From positions 12,153 to 76,152 of the forward strand of contig CASFFG010000002.1 of the NCBI GenBank assembly GCA_949293905.1: a stretch of DNA of 64,000 nt, read 5' to 3'. Shown piece by piece: positions 197 to 44,138 of the stretch. The position numbers and the translations under genes were made by a program. Origin of the DNA: an uncultured Christensenella sp. Lineage in GTDB: Bacteria; Bacillota; Clostridia; Christensenellales; UBA1242. The notes beneath the pieces are model-generated. The model searched no databases. It had not been told where the DNA came from and saw only the letters and a list, made by a program, of their open reading frames with translations. Each line of letters begins with the position of its first letter. Positions within the stretch are counted from its first letter, which is position 1.

Positions 197-224
197 ATAA
201 AAATTGCCGCTATCGGCAATTTTT
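197..224 (-). terminator. Rho-independent terminator downstream of the HEPN-like gene
   Basis: Stem ATTGCCG (203-209) / CGGCAAT (214-220) with a 4-nt loop. A-run on the plus strand gives a T-run on the minus strand immediately after the stem. Confidence 0.55.
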
Positions 225-382
225 ATTTATCGCTATCTTCTTATACCTAACAATCTTTTTAATTGTTGTAGTTCTAAATCAATATTATGTATTATTATAT
301 TTTTTTCAGTTACATTATATTTAATTTTATTTAAACTTCTTAAACATTCATAAATAAAATTAAATTCATTAAACGAATAGTA

Positions 383-970
383 TCACTCACTTGGAACTAT
401 AATATTACTAATTAATTCAATCAAATATATATAAATTAAAATAATAGTATTAGATACTTCAATAAATTCATCATTTTTTAGTGACCTCATTGCAAGACTT
501 ACTTCTTCCATTGCATTGTAATCATCATCGCTATGAGCAATATATTTATCTCTCAATGTTTTTAATATTATTATAAAATCTTTCTTTTTATCTAGCCAGA
601 TCTCTACATCTTTTATAAATTTTTCAAAAAGGTTCTTATCATTTTCATCTTCAATTTTTTCTTTTATATCTTTCATAATTTTATCTATTGAAATTTTACT
701 ATTTAGTCTACAATCAATCAATTTACAAAGATCTAAGATTGCTTCATTATAAAAAATTAGAGTTATTCTTCTTGGAAAATTAGGAAAAACTCTACAATAA
801 AACATATAAAAATTAAACTTGTCTGCCAAGTCATCAATCACATTAATTACATGACTAATCCATCTTGGACGCCTTTTTCTTTGGTTTAAATTTTTAATGA
901 TATTTGTCGACACTGTCTTTAATAGTCCAAGGCTTCTTAAACTGTGACCTGCTTCTATGAAATATTCCAT
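383..970 (-). CDS. HEPN-like protein (R-x5-H motif), possible AbiU2/AbiV-type abortive-infection protein
   Basis: ORF track 383..1006. Preferred start is ATG 968-970, preceded by the AAAGAGGTGG Shine-Dalgarno. Contains LRDKYIAHSD, which fits the HEPN Rx4-6H catalytic signature. Family assignment rests on this motif and size (195 aa) only. Confidence 0.4.
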   Translation of the reverse strand: MEYFIEAGHSLRSLGLLKTVSTNIIKNLNQRKRRPRWISHVINVIDDLADKFNFYMFYCRVFPNFPRRITLIFYNEAILDLCKLIDCRLNSKISIDKIMKDIKEKIEDENDKNLFEKFIKDVEIWLDKKKDFIIILKTLRDKYIAHSDDDYNAMEEVSLAMRSLKNDEFIEVSNTIILIYIYLIELISNIIVPSE

Positions 971-1267
971 AAACCACCTCTTTAATATTATAATATATAA
1001 TTTCATTCAAATCAATCCATCTATTCCACATAAAACCCATAGGCGAACAAGTGCCTATATGTAATTATCTCAAGAGTTGGGATGTAGTCAATGAACTTGA
1101 TGTGGTTTGAAAATTTTTGAATAATGAGTGTCGACTTTTTGTTTTGGGCTTCGGGTCTTCCCTTTTTCTTATTTCTGGTTTCAACCTTATCATTTACAGT
1201 TCCAGTTTTGCAAGTTTTGGTTTCAACCTCTCCTTTTTCAAGGTTGTCTTTTGTTATTTTTGCAAAA

Positions 1268-1419
1268 GGTTCGAATTCAGGTGCGTTTGCGCCATTTTCG
1301 AATTGACATTTTGAACCATATGGTTGAGCACTCTGAAGGAACCCTCTTGAGTTCGAATTTTTATTGGCAGGTTCGAATTTAGGTGCGCTTGCGCCATTTT
1401 CGAATTGACATTTCGAACC
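1268..1419. repeat. Pair of 50-bp direct repeats, each an internal palindrome (GGTTCGAA ... TTCGAACC)
   Basis: Copy A 1268-1317 and copy B 1370-1419 match at 47/50 positions, 102 bp apart. Each copy is bounded by inverted 8-mers (copy A right arm is TTTGAACC). A third partial GTTCGAATTT lies at 1351-1360. Confidence 0.85.
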
Positions 1420-1433
1420 ATAGGGGGGCATTT

Positions 1434-1460
1434 ACAAAAAAACTAGCATAATATTGCTAG
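1434..1460 (-). terminator. Rho-independent terminator of the small membrane protein gene
   Basis: Stem CTAGCA (1443-1448) / TGCTAG (1455-1460) with a 6-nt loop, followed on the minus strand by a T8 run (plus-strand A-run 1434-1442). Confidence 0.65.
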
Positions 1461-1479
1461 TTTTTAATTTGCCATTTTA

Positions 1480-1812
1480 TTAACCAATAACCAATGGTAC
1501 GATTATACCTGCGATGACGATTAAAAGGCAAACGAAATATAATACCTTCCAAACCATTTGTTTAGGACGCACATACTTCCATGCAAGAATAGAAACTATT
1601 ACTATCATGATAGCAGTAGCAATACCTTGCAATACGCCAACCACAGTAGCACTAACTCCGCAAGCAGACAAAATCAAAGCAATAGCGTAAAGAACAGTCG
1701 TAGCAACTATTGTCCAAAAAGAAATCTTATTTAGGCTCCAAACTGAACTCCTAGAACTAGAAGATTTTGTAGTTGTAGTTTTTGTACTCTTTGTATTTTT
1801 TGTATTAGCCAT
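1480..1812 (-). CDS. Small integral membrane protein, function unknown
   Basis: ORF track 1480..1830. Preferred start is ATG 1810-1812, preceded by AAGGGAGAAG. The N-terminus is rich in K, T and S, followed by about three hydrophobic helices. Confidence 0.6.
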   Translation of the reverse strand: MANTKNTKSTKTTTTKSSSSRSSVWSLNKISFWTIVATTVLYAIALILSACGVSATVVGVLQGIATAIMIVIVSILAWKYVRPKQMVWKVLYFVCLLIVIAGIIVPLVIG

Positions 1813-1990
1813 ACTCTTCTCCCTTATCAATTTTTTATAATTTTAATGAATAGAAAATTAAATGTCAAATATTTTTTAAAATTTTTCTCAAAAATTTTCT
1901 TTTTTTATTGATTTTTAATAATTTTTCTAAAATTTTCGTAAATATTATGGTCTTTTAATTGGATTTTAACTTTTAGGAACGTTATCGTTT

Positions 1991-2656
1991 CTACAATAAT
2001 TCGTTTTCTAAATCGATTAAATCGTCTGTAATAATCACCTTATTCCAAATTTTAGAATCATTCTCATTAGTTTCGGTTGGGTTAATACATATAGTTTTCA
2101 CTCCCGCCGTGTAGACATATTCATCATTTACGCTATTACCAACAAAACATATTTCTTCTGGTTTTAAATTTTTAGTTTTGCACAATTCTTCAACATACTT
2201 TGCCTTACCTTCATAGTCATATTTCGTGCCGACAATTTTTATGAGTTCTCCATTTTTACCAAACACAAAATCATTTGCACTAATTCTTTCAATGTAAACT
2301 AAACTATCGTGTAGCACGCTTTCTATCACATCAACTATATTTCCGCTAACAATATGAATCTTCTTCCCAGATTTGTACAAGTGCTCTATCAACTCGCGTG
2401 CATTTTTCATGAGTTCCACATTTCTAACGAGTTCGTCAAAAATGGTTTTATTAAAATTTCTTTTATTGAACGCCTTTAATGTCAGGTCGCACCATTCGGC
2501 GTGTGTAATTTTCTTTTCCATGAAAGATTTGTATAGAAAATAATAGTACGAATTTTTATCCGTACTATACTGGAGTCTATTCCAAATTTCGCGCCAAAAA
2601 TTCCCTTTCTTTTTAGTTAGTGTCCCGTCAAAATCGAATATTATATACTTTATCAT
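1991..2656 (-). CDS. HAD-superfamily hydrolase (HAD-IB / phosphoserine-phosphatase-like)
   Basis: N-terminal FDFDGTLT (DxDGT motif I) and C-terminal GNSVNDEY (motif IV) in the 221-aa ORF. Confidence 0.8.
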   Translation of the reverse strand: MIKYIIFDFDGTLTKKKGNFWREIWNRLQYSTDKNSYYYFLYKSFMEKKITHAEWCDLTLKAFNKRNFNKTIFDELVRNVELMKNARELIEHLYKSGKKIHIVSGNIVDVIESVLHDSLVYIERISANDFVFGKNGELIKIVGTKYDYEGKAKYVEELCKTKNLKPEEICFVGNSVNDEYVYTAGVKTICINPTETNENDSKIWNKVIITDDLIDLENELL

Positions 2657-2703
2657 ATTTATACCTGATACTTAATTTTAACGAGATTGAAATTAGTTGT
2701 CAA

Positions 2704-3459
2704 TTATTTCGTTTCATTGACAACTTGGAGTATCGCATTAAAAACACCAAACGCATTAGGTATTCCAACATATGGCAAACATTGCATAATTATTGCGCAT
2801 TGCTCCTCTAGGCTCGTACCTAATTTTAAGTTGCCTAGAACATGAGATTTCAGCGGACCAGTTTGACCGATTGCAGTTAAGATACATAGCACTAATTGCT
2901 CGCGAGTCTTTATATCTAAACCCTCTCTCGTGTAAAAATCTCCAAAACCTAACTCGGTTAAGAAATTCGATAACGTTTCTCCCATATTGTTTGGAAGTGG
3001 CTTATATCTTTCACTTATCTCGTTTCCGTAAATAGGATTTTGTATATTAAAGCCCTTTTCGTACCTATCCTTTTCAGTTACCGTTCCCGTGCTTTTTAGT
3101 GGCAACGCAATGCCCTTTTCTTTAAACACTGTGTTAATAACATCTATAGAATTTAATGTACGCGGGAAGCCTATAAATGGTGCGCATTGATAAATCGCTT
3201 CCCTTATTTCAATCGGTGTTGCCCCAACCTGCAAACATGCGTAGGTGTGTGACTTTAATTGTGGGAGCGCTTGTATACTCGACAAAACAGTAATCGTTAT
3301 TATTTCGCGCATTTTATTTGTTAATGTCCCAACCTTACTTACTTCGCCAAAAATAAATTTTTACAATATATCCATAAATTCAGGGTCAGTAGGACTAGGT
3401 GTCCTAACAGAGCCGAAGAGTTCTAAAAACTGTTCATTACAAATTTTTTCTCTATCCAT
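2704..3459 (-). pseudogene. Carboxymuconolactone decarboxylase (CMD/AhpD-like) family gene interrupted by one in-frame TAA
   Basis: The ORF track shows only 2704..3312. Reading further upstream in the same frame gives ATG 3457-3459 with a TAAGGAGAAT Shine-Dalgarno. That frame reads MDREKICNEQFLELFGSVRTPSPTDPEFMDIL-TAA(3361-3363)-KFIFGEVSKVGTLTNKMREI..., a contiguous CMD-family N-terminus. Total length is 756 nt, or 252 codons. Confidence 0.7.
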
Positions 3460-3792
3460 AATTCTCCTTACAATATATAATTGTGAATTTTTAAAAGTAA
3501 AATAAAATGTAGATTTTTTAAATTAAACTTTAATAAAAATTAATTAAAAATACAAAAAATTTTAAAAATTCTAATAAAAATGTTAAATTTTTAATGAAAA
3601 ACGCGTAAATTTTTGAATTTTTTAAAAATTTTTATTAATTTTTGTCTTTATTATTAATTTAAATTTTTATTTCAGCGGATTACTATTTTTAATTTTGTTT
3701 AGATCTCAAAGTCATATCATTAATCCACAAACTTTTATTTCTTCTTTCTTATTTTTCCTGAGTTATTAACTCGGTTTGTTATTTTTTCTTTC

Positions 3793-4218
3793 TTATTTTA
3801 ATTTTTTGTATTCTTCATCGCTTACTGGTTCGCACCAAACATTGCTAGTTTCAACTCCCGGAATTTCAATTGCAAGATGAGAGAACCAACCGTCCTTTGT
3901 TGCACCATGCCAATGTTTTACATTTGCTGGAATGTAAACTACATCTCCTTCACTAAGATATTGTGCAGGTTTACCAACTTCTTGATACCAGCCATGTCCA
4001 CCAACGCAAATGAGCATTTGTCCACCACCAGACTTCGCTTTATGGATATGCCAATTATTCCTGCAACCTGGTTCAAAAGTCACATTAGCGATAAAAAGCG
4101 AATCTCCTGGTTTTGTTAGTGGATTGAGATACGACTGCCCGATAAAATATTGCTGATAAGCCGTGTTAGGTTGACCTAAACCGAACATTCCACCTTTCTT
4201 AATTTCATTATCTTTCAT
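3793..4218 (-). CDS. Cupin domain protein
   Basis: The 141-aa ORF contains NNWHIHKA...GGQMLICVGGHGWYQE...GDVVYIPANVKHWHGA, the two His-containing cupin motifs. Shine-Dalgarno AAGGGGGAA precedes the ATG. Confidence 0.8.
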   Translation of the reverse strand: MKDNEIKKGGMFGLGQPNTAYQQYFIGQSYLNPLTKPGDSLFIANVTFEPGCRNNWHIHKAKSGGGQMLICVGGHGWYQEVGKPAQYLSEGDVVYIPANVKHWHGATKDGWFSHLAIEIPGVETSNVWCEPVSDEEYKKLK

Positions 4219-4241
4219 AATTTCCCCCTTTTATTAGATTT

Positions 4242-4272
4242 AGTTTATCACTTGGAGTCCGCTCCAAGTCAA
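4242..4272 (-). promoter_or_regulatory. MerR-type promoter with 19-bp spacer and embedded palindrome, upstream of the cupin gene
   Basis: Minus-strand reading is TTGACT (4267-4272), the 19-nt spacer TGGAGCGGACTCCAAGTGA, then TAAACT (4242-4247). The spacer carries the inverted repeat ACTTGGAG/CTCCAAGT. It is nearly identical to the site at 42804-42834. Confidence 0.6.
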
Positions 4273-4302
4273 ATGTTTTTAATACATTTTTAAAAATTTT
4301 TA

Positions 4303-4368
4303 ATTTTGAAAACTTAGGTTTTGGAAAATTTTACAATTTTGAAAACTTAGGTTTTGGAAAATTTTACA
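4303..4368. repeat. Perfect 33-bp tandem duplication (2 copies plus partial third)
   Basis: ATTTTGAAAACTTAGGTTTTGGAAAATTTTACA occurs at 4303-4335 and again at 4336-4368, followed by AATTTTC. Located between the cupin promoter and the secA promoter. Confidence 0.85.
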
Positions 4369-4468
4369 ATTTTCTACAAAATTATTGCTTTTTCTTTTCT
4401 TTCAAATAGTAGACAAATTCATTATAATTTGTTAATATATACTAGATATTAAATTAGAGGAATTTTTT

Positions 4469-7168
4469 ATGGGATTATTTTCTTACCTATTTGCGTCTGA
4501 CAACAAGCGCAGTTTAAACAAAATCGAAAAAATCGTTAAAGTTATTGAGTCTAAGGCGGATATGTACGCCAACATGACTGACGACGAATTACAGGCTCAA
4601 ACTCCTATCCTTAAAGATAGATTAAGTGCAGGAGAAACACTTGACCAAATTTTACCTGACGCTTTTGCTCTCGTTCGTGAAGCAAGCACGCGTGTCCTTG
4701 GTCAAAGACATTTCCATGTACAATTAATTGGTGGAATTGTTTTACATCAAGGCCGTATCGCTGAAATGCGCACTGGTGAAGGTAAAACGCTTACCGCTAC
4801 AACCGCGGTTTATTTAAACGCATTGACTGGAAAAAATGTACATGTAATTACGGTAAACGAATATCTTGCTAAAACTCAAGCCGAACAAATGGGAAAACTA
4901 TATAAGTTTTTAGGACTCACTATAGGGGTCACTCTTTCTGGGCAATCGCCAGAAGAAAAACACCACGCTTACGAGTGCGACATAACCTATGGCACAAATA
5001 ATGAGTTTGGTTTTGATTATCTTCGCGACAATATGCAAGTTGACAATAAATATAAAGTTCAACGCGGGCATAATTTCTGTATAGTGGACGAGGTGGATTC
5101 AATTCTCATCGATGAGGCGCGTACTCCACTTATTATTTCAGGTCCGGGCGGGAAAACAAGCGAATTATATACTCTTGCGAACACTTTTGCAAAACGCTTA
5201 AAAGATGAAGATGTGGACATCGACATTAAGCGCAAGCAAATTCGTCTAACTGAATCGGGTGTAAATAAAGCAGAAACTTTCTTTAAATTAGAAAATCTAA
5301 GCGATATTAACAACCTTGAAATAAATCACCATATCAACAATGCACTCCGCGCAAATTACATCATGAAGCGCGATATAAACTACATCGTTAAAAATGACGA
5401 AATTTTAATTGTCGATGAATTCACTGGTCGTGTTATGTCTGGAAGAAGATATTCGGACGGATTGCACCAAGCGATTGAAGCAAAAGAAGGCGTTAAAATT
5501 AAAGACGAGAATAAGACTCTCGCTACCATCACGCTTCAAAACTACTTTAAGTTGTACTCAAAACTAAGCGGTATGACTGGTACTGCTAAGACAGAAGAGA
5601 GCGAATTCAATAAGATATATAATCTCGATGTCGTTACTATTCCTACTAACCTACCTGTTCAGCGAATTGACGAGCAAGACATGGTTTTCTATACCGAAGA
5701 AGCAAAATTAAAGGCGATTGTAGAAGAAATTAAATCTAAGTACGAAAAAGGTCAACCTATCCTTGTCGGTACAGCGTCTGTTGAAAAATCCGAGCGAATT
5801 AGTAAAGAAATTAAAAAATTAGGTATTCCGCACAATCTATTGAACGCAAAAAATCATGAATTGGAGAGCCAAATCGTTGCTCAATCTGGTCGTGTAGGTC
5901 AAGTTACTATTGCAACAAACATGGCAGGTCGTGGTACAGATATTTTGCTCGGCGGTAATCCTGAATTCTTAGCAAAACAAAAACTTATAAATGAAAATGT
6001 TGAACCGGCTGTCATTGAAAAAGTTACCACCTACAACTCCACTCTAACAGAAGAAGAGCAAGCAATAAAAGAAAAATTCGATAAATATTTTGCTGAATTT
6101 AAAGCTATTACGGACGAAGAAAAGAAGAAAGTTATCGAACTCGGTGGACTTCACATTTTGGGTACTGAGCGTCATGAATCTCGTCGAATAGATAATCAGT
6201 TGCGTGGTCGTGCTGGGCGTCAAGGCGACCCTGGTTCGAGCATATTCTTCATTTCATTTGAAGACGACCTCCCACAGCGCTTTGGCGAAGACAGAATGAA
6301 GAGTTGGTTCTCGCTTGCTTTCAAAGGCAACGAAGATATGCCACTTCAATCTAGAATACTAACAAAGTTCTTCGAAAGTGCGCAAAAGAAAGTCGAAGCG
6401 ATGAATTTCAGCATACGAAAGAACTTGCTTGAATATGATGATGTTCTCAACAAACAACGACAAATCATATATGGAGAGCGCGATAAAGTGCTTGATGGCG
6501 TAGATATTCATGCTCAAATTCTAGAGATGATGAAAGAATATGTCTTTGATTTATGCTCGGCATATCTAGACGAAAATAAACCTAGTTATGAGTGGGAATT
6601 AGAGCCTGTAAATAAGGCGCTTGAAGATAAACTCCTTGATAAAGGTACTAACCTTATCACAAGTGAATTTGTGGAAGATAAAGATTTAAATCAAGTTAGC
6701 CAGGCTGTATACGACTACATCGTCGAAATTTATGAAAAGAAAATTGCAGAACTTAAGAAATTGGGATTAGATTTCTCAATCATTGAGCGCGATAGATTGC
6801 TTAGAGTCGTTGATAAATTCTGGACTGACCACATTGATGCTATGAACACTCTTCGCAACGAAATTGGAATACTAGCATATGGGCAAAAAGACCCTATTAT
6901 CGCGTATAAAAATCAGGGCTTTGAGATGTTCGACAAGATGATTTCGGATATCCGTGAATACACCGCTTCCGCCCTATTTAGAACACAGGTAAAAGTAAAT
7001 ATCGTACCTGCTCGTCCTAAGGGTCCTGTCGCTATGGGAAATGTAAATAAGAGCGAAAACATGAGCGCCAGACGCAATAACGCGCACATAGGTCGTAACG
7101 ATTTATGCCCATGCGGTAGCGGAAAGAAATACAAAAACTGCTGTATGAATAAAGATAATAAAAATTAA
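4469..7168 (+). CDS. secA: Preprotein translocase ATPase SecA
   Basis: 899 aa. Contains the MRTGEGKT Walker A, DEVDSILIDEARTPLIISG and TNMAGRGTDI motifs, and the C-terminal zinc motif CPCGSGKKYKNCC. Confidence 0.98.
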   Translation: MGLFSYLFASDNKRSLNKIEKIVKVIESKADMYANMTDDELQAQTPILKDRLSAGETLDQILPDAFALVREASTRVLGQRHFHVQLIGGIVLHQGRIAEMRTGEGKTLTATTAVYLNALTGKNVHVITVNEYLAKTQAEQMGKLYKFLGLTIGVTLSGQSPEEKHHAYECDITYGTNNEFGFDYLRDNMQVDNKYKVQRGHNFCIVDEVDSILIDEARTPLIISGPGGKTSELYTLANTFAKRLKDEDVDIDIKRKQIRLTESGVNKAETFFKLENLSDINNLEINHHINNALRANYIMKRDINYIVKNDEILIVDEFTGRVMSGRRYSDGLHQAIEAKEGVKIKDENKTLATITLQNYFKLYSKLSGMTGTAKTEESEFNKIYNLDVVTIPTNLPVQRIDEQDMVFYTEEAKLKAIVEEIKSKYEKGQPILVGTASVEKSERISKEIKKLGIPHNLLNAKNHELESQIVAQSGRVGQVTIATNMAGRGTDILLGGNPEFLAKQKLINENVEPAVIEKVTTYNSTLTEEEQAIKEKFDKYFAEFKAITDEEKKKVIELGGLHILGTERHESRRIDNQLRGRAGRQGDPGSSIFFISFEDDLPQRFGEDRMKSWFSLAFKGNEDMPLQSRILTKFFESAQKKVEAMNFSIRKNLLEYDDVLNKQRQIIYGERDKVLDGVDIHAQILEMMKEYVFDLCSAYLDENKPSYEWELEPVNKALEDKLLDKGTNLITSEFVEDKDLNQVSQAVYDYIVEIYEKKIAELKKLGLDFSIIERDRLLRVVDKFWTDHIDAMNTLRNEIGILAYGQKDPIIAYKNQGFEMFDKMISDIREYTASALFRTQVKVNIVPARPKGPVAMGNVNKSENMSARRNNAHIGRNDLCPCGSGKKYKNCCMNKDNKN

Positions 7169-40025: not shown

Positions 40026-40607
40026 TTATTTTCTATTTTCTTTTTTTAACAATTTATTTAAACCGATTACGATTAATGGAACTATAATCGCTTGGATAAA
40101 TAGTGCGGTCATTCCCGATTGAATTTGTGTCCAAACTAGATTAGTGCTTAGACCTGTCGTGCTACCAAATAGTGCAACGCTAATTAAGAAAACTGTTCTT
40201 CCTGAAAGTCCAGCGACTAAAACAGCAGGAAAAGCGTAAACTGGATTTTCATATATCTTTTTAGAAAACAATCCGCTAACGAGCGCGAACACTGCCAATT
40301 CTAGAATCATGAAAGGAAGTCTACTAAGCGCTGGCATAGGATTTGAGATAAGCGATGTTATAATAAAACTTGTTATAGGGCTAAGAATTCCTACTCCTAA
40401 TCCCCACCATGTGCCTAATAAACAACCAGCAAGCAATACGGGTAGATACATAGGAAGCCAAGTCATACCACCGCTCGCTCCAGCCCATAAGTGAACCAAC
40501 TGTGGTAGCCCAACTGCAAGTACGATAAGAGCACCCGCTACAAGTGTTTTAATTGTGATTTTAATTCCAATCTTAATATCTTTTCTTTCTAAAACTTGTT
40601 CTAACAT
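40026..40607 (-). CDS. ECF-transporter S-component-like membrane protein (substrate unknown)
   Basis: 193 aa with about six TM helices. Size and topology are typical of ECF substrate-capture subunits. No specific family motif recognised. Confidence 0.5.
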   Translation of the reverse strand: MLEQVLERKDIKIGIKITIKTLVAGALIVLAVGLPQLVHLWAGASGGMTWLPMYLPVLLAGCLLGTWWGLGVGILSPITSFIITSLISNPMPALSRLPFMILELAVFALVSGLFSKKIYENPVYAFPAVLVAGLSGRTVFLISVALFGSTTGLSTNLVWTQIQSGMTALFIQAIIVPLIVIGLNKLLKKENRK

Positions 40608-40750
40608 ATTTTCTCTCCTTTTTATTTTTATATTTTTTATTAAAAATCGTTAAAATTTTTTATTTTTTCAAAAAAATTAAATTTTTATCGTTTTTTTGCT
40701 TATTTTTTTGCAAATTTTTATTAATATTTTGAAAATTTTTTATTTTTTAA

Positions 40751-41539
40751 TTATTTATTTTTAATTAACATGATTTTTAAAGTTCGTGGAGTATAGTATT
40801 TTCGCTTTCCTAGCCCATATCCTTCTTTTATAATTTTATAGTTTTTAGCATTATTAAAATCTCCAATTCCCGCAAGTGCGCCTAGCCCAGTAGGAGTAAT
40901 CAGTTCGTACGGAAAATCTGTCCGCTTAATTTTGATATTAAACTCGTCCGCTATATTTTTTACCGCAGGTGTTGGAATATCCAGCATTCCTACTCGCGTT
41001 TGAATTTTACCTTTCCCTTCAACTAGATTTTGTATGTACACCTTATCCACTGCTAAATCGTCTAGGCAGACGGCAATAGAAGTTATATCTATTATTGAAT
41101 CCATAGCACCTGACTCATGAAAGACAACTTCATTTACACTAATTTTATGTGCTTTGGCTTCTGCACGAGCAATGATTGAAAATATCTTTTTAGCAATATC
41201 TTTTGCAGAATTTGTTAAAATTGAATTATCTAAAATTTTAAAGACATCTTCTATATTTCTTCTAATAAAATTATTTTGTTCTATTCTCTTGTCGCCAAAA
41301 AGATATTCCATATCATTATCGTGATTGTCTTTAAGTTCTACATCAAAATCTGTAATTATTCGCGAGTTGTCACTCTTGTCCGTAATTTTTATCGTATAGC
41401 TATCCAAATTTAGACTGTCGATAGATTTCCTTAATTTGTCCTTGTCCGCACCCAAAGATAAGAGTGCGCCGACTATCATATCTCCACTTACTCCAAAAGA
41501 GCAATCAATAAGTAAATTAGTCGATGTCGATGATTTCAT
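40751..41539 (-). CDS. LarC-like (DUF111) protein, N-terminal domain only
   Basis: 262 aa. LLIDCSFGVSGDMIVGALLSLGADKDKL matches the LarC/DUF111 N-terminal signature (LDC.SG.SGDM..GAL.DLG). The protein lacks the roughly 130-aa C-terminal domain of full-length LarC. It overlaps the upstream gene by 23 nt. Confidence 0.6.
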   Translation of the reverse strand: MKSSTSTNLLIDCSFGVSGDMIVGALLSLGADKDKLRKSIDSLNLDSYTIKITDKSDNSRIITDFDVELKDNHDNDMEYLFGDKRIEQNNFIRRNIEDVFKILDNSILTNSAKDIAKKIFSIIARAEAKAHKISVNEVVFHESGAMDSIIDITSIAVCLDDLAVDKVYIQNLVEGKGKIQTRVGMLDIPTPAVKNIADEFNIKIKRTDFPYELITPTGLGALAGIGDFNNAKNYKIIKEGYGLGKRKYYTPRTLKIMLIKNK

Positions 41540-42401
41540 ATTCTCTACTGCCGAGTTTATGTGCGCATGCCGCTTCTACAGTGTGTATACCATGACGCGA
41601 GTTCATTCTTTCAATCAAGTCTGCCTTGCCGGGGTCGTTGGAGTTGATGACGGCATCATAGCAAACCTGGTCAAGTGCCACAGGGTCAATAGATGCGAAA
41701 ATGCCGATATCTTTCATCTTTGGTGTGGCAGGGTTTGAGTCGCAGTCACAATCGACAGAAAGGTTGTTTGCCACGCTGATATAGAGAAGGTTATCCTTGC
41801 CCACATAGTCGATAACTCCTTTGCACGCATCAGCCATAGACTCCAAAAAGTCATCTTGTTTTGGAAGATGCGACCAAATGTATTCTTGATTTAGAGAAGT
41901 TCCCGCTGAGTGAATGTTGAGTTTGCCGTTTGTGGAAGCCATGCCGATAGACATATTTTTAAGTGCGCCCCCAAATCCGCCCATAGCATGACCTTTAAAG
42001 TGCGATAGAAGTAAGAAGGAGTCGTAGTTGTCGATATGCTCGCCAACAATATCCTTATCGAGATGGTATCCGCCCTTAATAGGTATCGATTTTTCGCCAA
42101 ATTCATCCATGATGTCACATGGCGCAATCGCATAAAAACCATGGTCCTTAATCGCTTGCCAGTGGTCCTTTGGGTCCTGTCTTTTACCGCCATACGCTGT
42201 GCAACACTCTACAATCGTTCCATTTAATTTATCTACAAGTGGTTTAATTAAGTTAGGATTTAAAAAGTTATGTCCGCCTGGCTCCCCTGTGGAAATTTTT
42301 ACCGCAACTTTTCCTTTTAATTCATGATTAAGTGCTTCATAGATTTTGATTAATCCTTCTGGTGTAATAGATTTTGTAAAATAAACTTTTGATTTTTTCA
42401 T
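41517..42401 (-). CDS. DUF362 domain protein
   Basis: 294 aa. KVYFT..., ISTGEPGG, LLLSHFKGHAMGGFGGALKNMSIGMAS and VDCDCD match the DUF362 family pattern as I recall it. There is no C-terminal ferredoxin extension. Confidence 0.7.
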   Translation of the reverse strand: MKKSKVYFTKSITPEGLIKIYEALNHELKGKVAVKISTGEPGGHNFLNPNLIKPLVDKLNGTIVECCTAYGGKRQDPKDHWQAIKDHGFYAIAPCDIMDEFGEKSIPIKGGYHLDKDIVGEHIDNYDSFLLLSHFKGHAMGGFGGALKNMSIGMASTNGKLNIHSAGTSLNQEYIWSHLPKQDDFLESMADACKGVIDYVGKDNLLYISVANNLSVDCDCDSNPATPKMKDIGIFASIDPVALDQVCYDAVINSNDPGKADLIERMNSRHGIHTVEAACAHKLGSREYEIIDID

Positions 42402-42414
42402 ATTTATTCTCCTT

Positions 42415-42786
42415 TTATTTTAATTTCTTCTCATGCTTCAGCATTTTAGTATAATAGACATCTATCTTATAATTTAATCTATCATATGCCTTATTCATCT
42501 CGTCCAATTTCTTTTTTAGTACATCGCGTTGCTCGATAAGTAGATTTTTTCGTTTTTCAGCAGTATGTTCTCCTTGCTTAATTAACTCCATATATTTAAT
42601 CAAGACATCTATTGGTATACCTGCGCTTCTCATGCATACGACAAACTCAATTCTATCGATTTCCTTTTCCCCATAATCGCGCTTCCCACCGACACGCGGA
42701 ACGGGGTCTATTATCCCGATTTTTTCATAATAGCGCAAAGTGTCAGGCGTGATATTATATTTCTCTCCTATCTCATGTATCGTCAT
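42415..42786 (-). CDS. MerR-family transcriptional regulator (short, no metal-type Cys triad)
   Basis: 123 aa. The N-terminus is IHEIGEKYNITPDTLRYYEKIGII (MerR HTH), followed by a wing and a coiled-coil dimerisation helix. Confidence 0.85.
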   Translation of the reverse strand: MTIHEIGEKYNITPDTLRYYEKIGIIDPVPRVGGKRDYGEKEIDRIEFVVCMRSAGIPIDVLIKYMELIKQGEHTAEKRKNLLIEQRDVLKKKLDEMNKAYDRLNYKIDVYYTKMLKHEKKLK

Positions 42787-43010: not shown

Positions 43011-43673
43011 CTATGAATTTATTTCTTCTAAAATACTTATAACTTCATTTAAATTATTTAAAATTTTAAATGCTAATCTTTTTACCTTCTTACTATTTTC
43101 TTTAATATCTGGAATCAATATCGTTTTAATGCCCGCACTAGTAGAAGATAAAACCCCATTATCACTATCTTCAAGTACTATCGTTTCTTCTATTTTTACG
43201 CCTAATTTTTTACATGCAAAAAGATAGATATCAGGTTCTGGCTTACCATGCTCTACCATGTCACCAGTAATAATTTCATCAAAAAGTTTTGGGTCAATGT
43301 TAGCATATTTTAAACTAAACTCCACTCTATCTTGTAACGATGATGACGCTATCGCCGTTTTATAACCCTTACTTTTTAAATAATTCATGAGTTCATAAAA
43401 GCCACTCTTCACTTTTATCCCATTTTTTATAGCGTCTTCTCGCATAAAGATTTTGTTGTATGCTCTAAATTTTTCCACATCAAAATCTTTACCCATCGCC
43501 TTTCGCCACTTTTTCGAGATGAGTTCATATCGCATACCGATTGTTTCGATCGCAAGGGAAATTGGAAGGTTATAATGATAGACTTCATTCGTCTTTTTTA
43601 TCGCATTTATACCCCATGTTTCGCTGTCTAGAATTAGTCCGTCTAAATCAAAAATTACCGCTTTTATTTTCAT
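43011..43673 (-). CDS. HAD-IA hydrolase (beta-phosphoglucomutase-like)
   Basis: 220 aa with VIFDLDGLILDSE (motif I), ASSS (motif II) and EDSDNGV (motif IV). Confidence 0.85.
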   Translation of the reverse strand: MKIKAVIFDLDGLILDSETWGINAIKKTNEVYHYNLPISLAIETIGMRYELISKKWRKAMGKDFDVEKFRAYNKIFMREDAIKNGIKVKSGFYELMNYLKSKGYKTAIASSSLQDRVEFSLKYANIDPKLFDEIITGDMVEHGKPEPDIYLFACKKLGVKIEETIVLEDSDNGVLSSTSAGIKTILIPDIKENSKKVKRLAFKILNNLNEVISILEEINS

Positions 43674-43779
43674 AATTACTCCTTAAAGTTAGTATAACAC
43701 AGATTACGAAAAAAGAAAAACAAAGAAAAGTGAAAAAAGAAAAAATAAGAGTAAAACAAAAATATTCCTCGTTAATTCA

Positions 43780-43912
43780 GGGCTCCCACGAGTGCCGAAA
43801 GGTACGAAGTGGGAAATGGGTTCCCTACAAGACGTTAGTCACAGTAGGGCTAAAAAAAGGAGTGACCGATTATAATTAAAGGGTTCCCTGCGAGCCGAAT
43901 GGCGAAGTAGGG
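43780..43912. repeat. Three related 32-34-nt hairpin units (GGGYU-CCC..C / G..GGG) in the same orientation
   Basis: Units at 43780-43813, 43818-43849 and 43881-43912. Each has a 5-6 bp lower stem, a purine-rich asymmetric internal loop (GA/GAA, AA/ACA, GA/GAA), a 3-5 bp upper stem with different sequences (GUGCC/GGUAC, GAC/GUC, GCC/GGC) and a 4-nt loop (GAAA, GUUA, GAAU). Confidence 0.75.
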
Positions 43913-43920
43913 ATAAAAAA

Positions 43921-43993
43921 ATGACCGCCCGTAAATCTTACTAATGCAGTTTTATACCTAAAACTGCGGTAAGAAAAGGGCGTGTCATTTTTT
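43921..43993. terminator. Long bidirectional terminator hairpin 3' of tRNA-Ser(GGA)
   Basis: Nested pairing runs ATGAC-CGCCC ... CTTAC ... GCAGTTTTA-TACC-TAAAACTGC ... GTAAG ... GGGCG-GTCAT. It is flanked by A7 (43914-43920) and T6 (43988-43993). Confidence 0.7.
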
Positions 43994-43994
43994 C

Positions 43995-44082
43995 TGGCGC
44001 AGAGAACAGGATTTGAACCTGCGGACGCTTTCACGTCACACGATTTCCAATCGTGCTCATTCGACCGCTCTGACATCTCTGC
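43995..44082 (-). tRNA. tRNA-Ser (anticodon GGA), CCA encoded
   Basis: Hand-folded. Acceptor is GCAGAGA/UCUCUGC, anticodon stem CACGA/UCGUG, loop UUGGAAA. It has a long variable arm and T-arm GCAGG-UUCAAAU-CCUGU. Confidence 0.93.
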
Positions 44083-44138
44083 TTATGCAATCGTATTGAC
44101 TGCATAATTTTACCATTTTATTTTATAATTGTCAATTA

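Follow-up and report, generated by a model that had tools for sequence, protein, structure and literature searches.

A Candidate REP/BOX-Like Hairpin Repeat Module beside a tRNA-Ser Gene in an Uncultured Christensenella Genome

Between the start of a HAD gene and a tRNA-Ser(GGA) gene, the genome of an uncultured Christensenella sp. carries a short GC-rich patch in which a first-pass annotation had recognized three hairpins of one plan. Is this patch the gene of a new structured RNA, or a repeated element that settled beside the tRNA gene? We addressed this question in a stretch of 64,000 nucleotides (64 kb) of contig CASFFG010000002.1, hereafter the window, whose numbering is used for the locus. 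The contig belongs to the metagenome-assembled genome of a low-GC Firmicute (ENA ERZ17292905). The three hairpin units (U1, U2, and U3) and the long hairpin that follows them have close copies at non-orthologous loci of other gut bacteria, and sister species lack the whole patch. With about even confidence, we read the patch as a new REP (repetitive extragenic palindromic)/BOX-like hairpin repeat module, inserted in this lineage only and whose long hairpin would now terminate tRNA-Ser. The family is new, with no match in Rfam and none in the literature searched.

Three Hairpin Units of One Plan

The three hairpins lie at the coordinates and have the sequences first attributed to them, and their predicted folds are exactly as described. 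They share a GGGYU tail, a CCC/GGG-footed lower stem, a 2x3 purine-rich internal loop, a variable but paired upper stem, and a tetraloop. The features of the locus are the following:

43780..43813, plus strand: unit U1 (U1 type), with GGGCU tail, CCCAC/GUGGG lower stem, GA/GAA internal loop, GUGCC/GGUAC upper stem (one G-U), and GAAA loop
43818..43849, plus strand: unit U2, with GGGUU tail, CCCUAC/GUAGGG lower stem, AA/ACA internal loop, GAC/GUC upper stem, and GUUA loop
43850..43880, plus strand: putative remnant of a truncated module after U2, CTAAAAAAA-GGAG-TGACCG (start of the 5' arm of the long hairpin), then the linker ATTATAATTAAA before U3
43881..43912, plus strand: unit U3 (U3 type), with GGGUU tail, CCCUGC/GUAGGG lower stem (one G-U), GA/GAA internal loop, GCC/GGC upper stem, and GAAU loop
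43913..43993, both strands: A7 linker, long imperfect hairpin TGACCGCCCG...GGGCGTGTCA, and T6, with the shape of an intrinsic terminator on either strand and, on the minus strand, the predicted terminator of tRNA-Ser
43995..44082, minus strand: tRNA-Ser(GGA), convergent with the units (ARAGORN and Rfam, 53.6 bits)
43690..43760, plus strand: polypurine tract (82% purine) in the upstream region of the HAD gene, which is on the minus strand

On the plus strand, U1, U2, and U3 fold at −16.3, −11.0, and −14.5 kcal/mol (z = −3.5, −2.8, and −3.1, respectively). None or one of 200 shuffled sequences folds equally well, and the minimum free energy structure makes up ~94–95% of the ensemble. On the minus strand, U1 and U3 reach −9.5 and −8.7 kcal/mol (z about −1.3), no better than shuffled sequences, and their G-U pairs turn into C-A mismatches. 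The strand asymmetry claimed for these pairs is therefore real, and it becomes stronger when copies from other genomes are added. U2 was scored 47.1 bits by the covariance model R1.

The patch has a G+C content of 45%, compared with 33% for the window. To a structural descriptor (a CC-footed stem of 5–7 bp, a 2x3 loop with A's, and an upper stem of 3–6 bp), unrelated DNA gave 16 matches in 1.69 Mb, none of them with a GGGNT tail. The 64-kb window gave three, all within 133 nt, where fewer than 0.1 would be expected by chance. As such matches are rare in unrelated DNA and never GGGNT-tailed there, the cluster of three units is far beyond chance. A 54-nt direct repeat (43815–43868 and 43878–43931, 72% identical) shows that U2 and U3 were duplicated along with the A-run and the first bases of the long hairpin (TGACCG).

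In agreement with the first-pass annotation, which could assign the element to no known RNA family, Rfam 15 finds only the tRNA at gathering as well as at permissive thresholds; in 43600–44100, the best non-tRNA matches score 14–17 bits against thresholds of 50–75. The polypurine tract reported upstream of the units exists but is probably not part of the element; sister species have an A/T-rich spacer without units at its position. A 49-aa open reading frame (ORF) with a GTG start (43730–43879, plus strand) runs across U1 and U2. We rejected it as coding, since a convincing ribosome-binding site is missing and no conservation of the frame is seen at the other units. A TGTCAT hexamer at 43982–43987 closes the long hairpin.

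Copies at Non-Orthologous Loci of Other Genomes

Relatives were sought by a pattern scan of one genome per species followed by a fold filter, which led to loci L125 (CALWTK01) and L108 (CBFGBH01), and by a covariance model, which led to L088 (CANQDP01). The pattern scan returned mostly noise, and among the matches listed only these three loci passed the structural and context filters. Members of the family are thus present in at least three other metagenome-assembled genomes (MAGs) of low-GC gut Firmicutes besides the window. The covariance-model search, a check proposed by the first-pass annotation, brought further copies, the L088 units, and the stems covary across units.

The richest locus is L125, from an "uncultured Clostridia" MAG (33% G+C), with at least six units within 8 kb. 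Three modules (A to C) form a tandem array on one strand and are convergent with tRNA-Leu(UAA); in each, a unit is followed by an A7 run and then by a long hairpin. The third unit (6389–6420) is identical to U3 over 32 of 32 positions, the 22 nt GGGATAAAAAAATGACCGCCCG (window 43910–43931) are found unchanged at 6301–6322, and the long hairpin after unit A is ~87% identical to that of the window. The linker ATTATAATTAAA before U3 resembles TTATAACAAAA and TTATAATTCA, which precede L125 units. The opposite strand bears two U1-type units (D and E; 6962–6929 and 6856–6823, minus strand), which are part of a tandem duplication of 106 nt located between tRNA-Cys and tRNA-Leu. Their stems and the upstream TAATTCA flank are those of U1; their internal and terminal loops are AA/GCA and UAAU.

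In L108 (Candidatus Onthoplasma), a U3-type unit with a GAC/GUC upper stem (3255–3224, minus strand) is followed by a long CGCCC...GGGCG hairpin. This unit lies inside a T-box leader (3429–3107, minus strand) upstream of an archaeal-type aspartyl-tRNA synthetase (AspRS) gene. The T-box scores 82.8 bits and falls below the Rfam gathering score of 93 because of the ~100-nt insertion that contains the unit. A 22-nt direct repeat, GCAAATCAGTAATAGGGCGAGA, flanks this insertion. L088, from a rabbit-gut "Clostridia" MAG, has two co-oriented units (a and b) in the 3' untranslated region (UTR) of a probable phosphoketolase gene, upstream of the terminator of that gene.

Copy counts therefore range from one cluster of three units in the 64-kb window and at least six units in 8 kb of L125 to one or two units each in L108 and L088. 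Contexts and orientations vary (tRNA flank, T-box leader, 3' UTR), and the loci have no neighboring gene in common. Clustering near tRNA genes, a check suggested by the first-pass annotation, holds for four of the six Firmicute insertion sites, where a tRNA gene is no more than 300 nt away, and the T-box leader is the fifth site; L088, however, has no tRNA nearby. In four independent contexts (L125 unit C, L125 units D/E, L088a, and units b/c of the metagenomic locus L145), the GGG tail is preceded at a distance of 3–7 nt by a TGTYAT box. This box may mark a module boundary or a cleavage site.

At the units of L125, L108, L069, L141, L145, and L152, Rfam gave no match (one T-box, that of L108, was recognized nearby). 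Scans of viral contigs with three patterns returned nothing, or chance matches without the fold. The 226-nt patch had no BLAST match in collections of plasmids and phages, and a literal sequence search of the literature retrieved only an unrelated human satellite. L069 (Saccharibacteria), L107, L144, and a few other survivors of the fold filter were set aside, as they fit the one or two hairpin-like matches expected by chance. Among the metagenomic matches, L140, L143, L148, L150, L153, and L154 share a different conserved sequence, GGGTTCCCTCCGAG-GGGGC-TCAAAGAAGGG-AGGGGTGG, preceded by TTTCAT...AATTCTAA and without such a hairpin.

The units do not form a CRISPR array, as already noted by the first-pass annotation: an array would have near-identical repeats with unique spacers of ~25–40 nt between them, whereas the units are non-identical and stand 4 and 31 nt apart, and no cas genes occur in the window. 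L125 offers a direct contrast with a genuine type II array, whose repeats are identical and have a period of 66. This array, of ~17 identical 36-nt repeats, belongs to a type II CRISPR-Cas locus (200–4310) that also codes for the C-terminal part of Cas9, for Cas1, and for a likely Cas2. This locus is 1.8 kb from the hairpin modules and has a likely tracrRNA around 4300–4400. A link between the units and this system was considered and rejected: the candidate tracrRNA is elsewhere, the repeat differs, and the window is without CRISPR. We treat the proximity as a coincidence.

Orthologous Sites Lack the Element

We compared the locus with those of two sister species, whose GT2 protein is at least 90% and HAD protein 64–69% identical to those of the window. 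Gene order is the same (sulfatase, tRNA-Asn, a 169-aa gene, GT2, tRNA-Ser, HAD). In both species, tRNA-Ser and HAD are separated by an AT-rich, unit-free spacer of 96–127 nt with its own small terminator, and the same short spacing occurs at nine further places carrying the sister GT2. Since sister sites have only this short unit-free spacer, the 215-nt patch is a lineage-specific insertion. Absence from close relatives had been named by the first-pass annotation as evidence against its RNA, and this is what we observe, the sister species being without the whole patch.

Two other loci could be examined in the same way. L162, whose AspRS is 73% identical to that of L108, has a compact T-box without the insertion. 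L164, a relative of L125 (ABC-F protein 72% identical), has the same tRNA-Cys/tRNA-Leu pair without the two U1-type modules; another hairpin, AT-rich and of the form GGGTTCCCTA...TAGGG, is inserted at a different place in its tRNA-Leu leader. In three of three testable cases, the close relatives are thus unit-free at the orthologous site.

The tRNA-Leu leader is itself a conserved feature. A sequence of ~170–220 nt is found upstream of tRNA-Leu(UAA) in L125 (6750–6582, minus strand) and in L164 (4945–5168, plus strand) and has no Rfam match. It starts with a copy of the 5' end of the tRNA itself (GGTGTGGCGAA...) and holds a stretch antisense to the D/anticodon arm of the tRNA (16 nt in L125 and 10 nt in L164). 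Such complementarity could sequester the tRNA within its precursor.

Other differences and genes were recorded around these sites. In the window, a block of four genes (40026–42786) coding for a MerR regulator, a DUF362 protein, a LarC-like Ni-insertion protein, and an ECF-type component separates HAD from the genes for a 1354-aa protein and glycyl-tRNA synthetase. In the sister species, the genes for the large protein and glycyl-tRNA synthetase come immediately after HAD, which implies a second indel adjoining the hairpin insertion. At its left edge (383–1006, minus strand), the window has an ORF with a HEPN AbiU2 domain of the abortive-infection type. L164 encodes an IS3-family transposase (rve domain) with small upstream ORFs (5460–6695) ~200 nt downstream of tRNA-Leu.

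Conservation of the Fold and of the Internal Loop

The compensatory changes reported among U1–U3 are real, and copies from other genomes reinforce them. In a set of 14 distinct units (nine Firmicute units and five candidates), 98.3% of the stem cells hold standard pairs, against 82.8% in column shuffles, of which none of 500 reaches the observed value. Both sides of the pair are changed in 21 cells for 7.7 expected, and pairing drops to 36–51% when the 3' partners are slid by one to three columns. The upper stem is paired as GUGCC/GGUAC, GAC/GUC, GCC/GGC, GCA/UGC, GAA/UUC, or GAAC/GUUC, and its two variable pairs occur as AU/CG/UA and as CG/AU/GC/GU. All wobble pairs are G-U on the strand of the unit and none on the complement. 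The fold is under selection. Compensation had also been proposed as the test that would tell the element from simple REP-like palindromes; it was found, but it cannot set the element apart from REP, because real REP families also keep their stems.

The internal loop covaries in 12 of 13 units, GA facing GAA (four units) and AA facing GCA or ACA (eight units; Fisher p = 0.007); the sole exception is the candidate L141. The cleanest contrast is offered by the U1-type units: on identical stems, the loop is GA/GAA in the window but AA/GCA in the two L125 copies. The change from G-A to A-C is tolerated by a sheared (trans sugar-edge/Hoogsteen) pair, the two being isosteric. As this is the change observed, the loop probably has a defined geometry that is read by something, either as RNA or as single-stranded DNA.

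The Long Hairpin and tRNA-Ser

The long hairpin (43916–43993) is highly stable on both strands (−37 kcal/mol, z = −8.5, on plus; −36.2 kcal/mol, z = −9.3, on minus) and is preceded by A7 and followed by T6. It fits the definition of an intrinsic terminator, a stable, G+C-containing hairpin followed by U6 on the plus strand and U7 on the minus strand, and is predicted to act as such. A simple terminator scanner overlooked it because it exceeds the limits set for loop and stem. tRNA-Ser(GGA) has its own promoter at 44135–44107 (TTGACA-17-TAAAAT with a TG, i.e., TTGACA-17-TGnTAAAAT), and on the minus strand the long hairpin and U7 come directly 3' of its CCA end. From sequence, it is therefore close to shown that the long hairpin has taken over from the small terminator found after tRNA-Ser in sister species. 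The shared terminator proposed by the first-pass annotation thus stands as regards its shape on both strands, but it is not specific to this locus: it is part of the repeated module, with its ~87% identical copy beside tRNA-Leu in L125.

Origin of the Patch and Rival Explanations

The family behaves like a shape-conserving repeat scattered sporadically, often beside tRNA genes, in low-GC gut bacteria, and not like an RNA gene that is conserved at one locus. A full module would consist of an A/T linker (TTATAAYWAAA, often after TGTYAT), a hairpin unit of 30–34 nt, an A7 run, and an imperfect hairpin of ~70 nt (TGACCGCCCG...GGGCGTGTCA). The unit would be defined by a GGGYT tail, a lower stem built on three G-C pairs, a 2x3 internal loop, an upper stem of free sequence, and a small loop. 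U3 and the long hairpin would then form one complete module, U2 would be a module truncated after TGACCG, and U1 would represent a second subtype of unit without a long hairpin of its own. We propose that the module was inserted and locally duplicated between tRNA-Ser and the HAD gene. The family may spread as a non-autonomous element of the REP, BOX, or MITE (miniature inverted-repeat transposable element) type that folds as a single strand (single-stranded DNA or RNA), a trans-acting protein recognizing the tail, the foot, and the asymmetric loop of the folded strand. Once inserted, it would be carried passively in host transcripts; here, the long hairpin with U7 on the minus strand would have been co-opted as the tRNA-Ser terminator, and the T6 side would stop read-through on the plus strand. 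The lineage-specific insertion, the tandem duplications, the near-identical copies at non-orthologous loci in both orientations, and the fold on one strand all point to a repeat element. Since no transposase was seen, we infer the spreading route, which could be an HUH/Y1-type enzyme acting on the folded single strand or simple duplication.

Several observations weigh against the repeat-element reading. Apparent copy number is low, with one cluster in 64 kb, and no Y1/HUH or other transposase is present among the window ORFs examined or next to the units at other loci. Where REPs have GT[AG]G, the 5' tag here reads GGGYT or, in two copies, GGGGT; GTAG occurs in the units only inside the 3' strand of the lower stem. 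The units are co-oriented (U1–U3 on plus; L125 A–C on plus and D/E on minus; L088a and L088b in the same direction) and do not alternate as in bacterial interspersed mosaic elements (BIMEs). The folding plus strand has a negative GC skew and is therefore not the lagging-strand template, which argues mildly against an IS608-like route. The loop covariation, read as that of an isosteric sheared pair, would suit a specific RNA motif for tertiary contacts or protein binding no less than a DNA recognition site, and a purely selfish element does not predict the tRNA/T-box bias of the insertion sites.

A rival that deserves weight but that we consider unlikely, and that matches the view of the first-pass annotation, is one or several tandem genes for a free-standing small RNA (sRNA) on the plus strand. 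The −10-like TTATAAT linker would drive transcription from the GGG of a unit or close to it, and the RNA would bind a protein through the sheared G-A loop of its 5' hairpin and end at the long hairpin with U6. The confinement of G-U pairs to the plus strand and the isosteric loop covariation are consistent with it. So are TATAAT 4 nt upstream of U3 and the extended −10 boxes before three L125 units (TGTTATAAT and TGTTATAAC, 3–4 nt upstream of units D/E and C); U3, the long hairpin, and T6 would together give a 113-nt RNA with a 5' hairpin and an intrinsic terminator. However, a promoter scan gave no sigma-70-type site on the plus strand upstream of any unit and no −35 element, and the −10-like box is missing before U2, L125 A and B, L108, and L088b. 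The TGTYAT/TTATAA box is also where the long hairpin before it ends on the 3' side (GGCGTGTCAT/GGCGTGTTAT), a 3' U-run is missing from modules A and B of L125, and the plus strand is antisense to every neighboring gene. Sister species lack the element, and an independent sRNA gene is improbable for the unit inside a T-box leader and the two in an mRNA 3' UTR. A slim chance is all we give to a cis-acting RNA element linked to tRNAs, a processing, stability, or protein-recruitment signal of tRNA precursors and of a tRNA-sensing T-box leader. Its appeal lies in the distribution of the units, at the tRNA-Ser flank in the window, at the tRNA-Leu 3' flank and in the tRNA-Cys/tRNA-Leu spacer in L125, and in the T-box leader of L108, to which can be added the unit-like hairpin inside the tRNA-Leu leader of L164 and a candidate unit 10 nt before tRNA-Glu in a tRNA operon (L152/L155). 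Yet the strand that folds in the window and in L125 A–C runs antisense to the tRNA and is hence not in the tRNA transcript, the L125 and L164 tRNA loci are one region and not independent, and orthologous tRNAs and T-boxes do without the element. Moreover, units in L088 and in the Bacteroidales-like L145 have no tRNA near them, and the L152 candidate, with an upper stem of only 2 bp, could be a chance match to the search pattern.

A purely local product, that is a hairpin such as an old tRNA terminator tripled by slippage, with neither a wider family nor a function, has hardly any chance of being correct. It would explain the 54-nt direct repeat and the lack of a further copy in the 64-kb window, but units, linker, and long hairpin recur identical or nearly so at non-orthologous loci, and the fold is kept through compensatory change; the idea is already refuted by the copies in L125, L108, and L088. 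Further candidates were discarded. The RNA antitoxin of a type III toxin-antitoxin system (ToxI-like) does not fit, as the units are not identical and are followed by a convergent tRNA instead of a plus-strand ORF. A riboswitch or cis-regulatory leader lacks a downstream plus-strand gene, and contexts differ between genomes. For group II intron domain V, the T-box stem II S-turn, and an origin from a tRNA T-arm, the geometry or key nucleotides misfit.

Possible Wider Distribution and Significance

In a metagenome scan, contigs of higher G+C content also yielded units that fold in the expected way. L145/L147, Bacteroidales-like and next to a gene for a FISUMP-type lipoprotein-like protein, has three tandem candidate units with a period of 42; L141/L146/L149 has a single candidate unit, enclosed by a larger stem and flanked by gldD and a peptidyl-prolyl isomerase gene. 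Membership of the Bacteroidales candidates is unproven, because the search pattern forced much of their identity to U3 and one or two chance matches are expected. In favor of homology of L145, a TGTCAT box lies 4 nt upstream of its GGG, outside the search pattern, and recurs in L088a and, as TGTTAT, in L125. We advance as a speculation, and rate as doubtful, that the unit is a new protein-binding or tertiary-contact RNA motif carried on a tiny mobile module that prefers tRNA loci and tRNA-sensing leaders and may have crossed phyla.

If the repeat-element reading is true, low-GC, small-genome uncultured gut Firmicutes have a REP/BOX-like family of their own, set apart from canonical REPs by its tag, by the tandem arrangement of its units in one orientation, and by the terminator hairpin linked to them. 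Such modules would be GC-rich structured islands that resemble novel noncoding RNAs in screens based on GC content or fold. They could also donate terminators to tRNA genes and upset the covariance-model detection of real RNAs, as exemplified by the L108 T-box. With its clean loop covariation, the unit would be a small and tractable structural target and a bait for its reader protein, transposase or otherwise. The loop covariation, the tRNA/T-box bias, and the possible cross-phylum copies are threads worth pulling.

Comparison with Known Systems

The first-pass annotation likened the GA/GAA loops to k-turn or loop-E-like motifs, and neither likeness survives inspection. The unit shares with the k-turn a purine-rich asymmetric loop, in which tandem sheared G-A/A-G pairs are plausible for GA/GAA and an isosteric A-C fits AA/GCA. 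A k-turn, however, has a 3-nt bulge followed by G-A and A-G on the same strand, opposite GA (5 nt vs. 2); here, there is no such bulge and the loop strands are of 2 and 3 nt. The loop-E/sarcin-ricin motif needs AGUA opposite GAA, and the 5' loop strand is only GA or AA.

The BOX elements of Streptococcus pneumoniae are modular boxA-boxB-boxC repeats present in more than 100 copies per genome, with modules of 45–59 nt. Like them, the element described here is modular and resides in low-GC Firmicutes, with a variable tandem submodule, stable hairpins, an intergenic and cotranscribed location, and no encoded transposase. They differ in that the two have no sequence similarity, and BOX has more copies, longer modules, and no conserved asymmetric loop.

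With the subterminal hairpins of the IS200/IS605 family and of its miniature derivatives (PMC6006769), the units share co-orientation on one active strand, a conserved guide 5' of the foot, and the lack of terminal inverted repeats, no target-site duplication being seen here. Unlike these elements, the units have no tnpA/tnpB nearby, the folding strand is not the lagging-strand template, and no conserved target tetranucleotide was identified.

The closest parallels are with REPs and BIMEs. Canonical REPs are usually present in more than 100 copies per genome (PMC2817692). Their hairpins have a conserved unpaired 5' tag at the foot and an imperfect bulged stem, with three G-C pairs at the foot in some classes, and they lie downstream of genes and are often transcribed (PMC6006769; PMC3733652). 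The likeness extends to the tag of 4–5 nt unpaired at the foot of an imperfect hairpin, the mispaired stem region giving polarity, stems kept through compensatory change, the extragenic location, mostly after genes and with transcription alongside the host gene, and the mixing of units with other short motifs (PMC6006769; PMC3733652). In size and location, the units agree with the REP definition of an imperfect palindrome of 20–40 nt with a mispaired region outside genes: the hairpins are 27–29 nt long with a 2x3 loop, and all copies are intergenic or in leaders/UTRs. No RAYT/TnpA-Y1 gene was seen among the window ORFs examined or beside units elsewhere. The family described here departs from REPs in its GGGYT tag, instead of GT[AG]G or CGTC, in units that are tandem and co-oriented instead of alternating, and in its low apparent copy number, its low-GC Firmicute hosts, its 2x3 loop, and its linked A-run and terminator-like hairpin.

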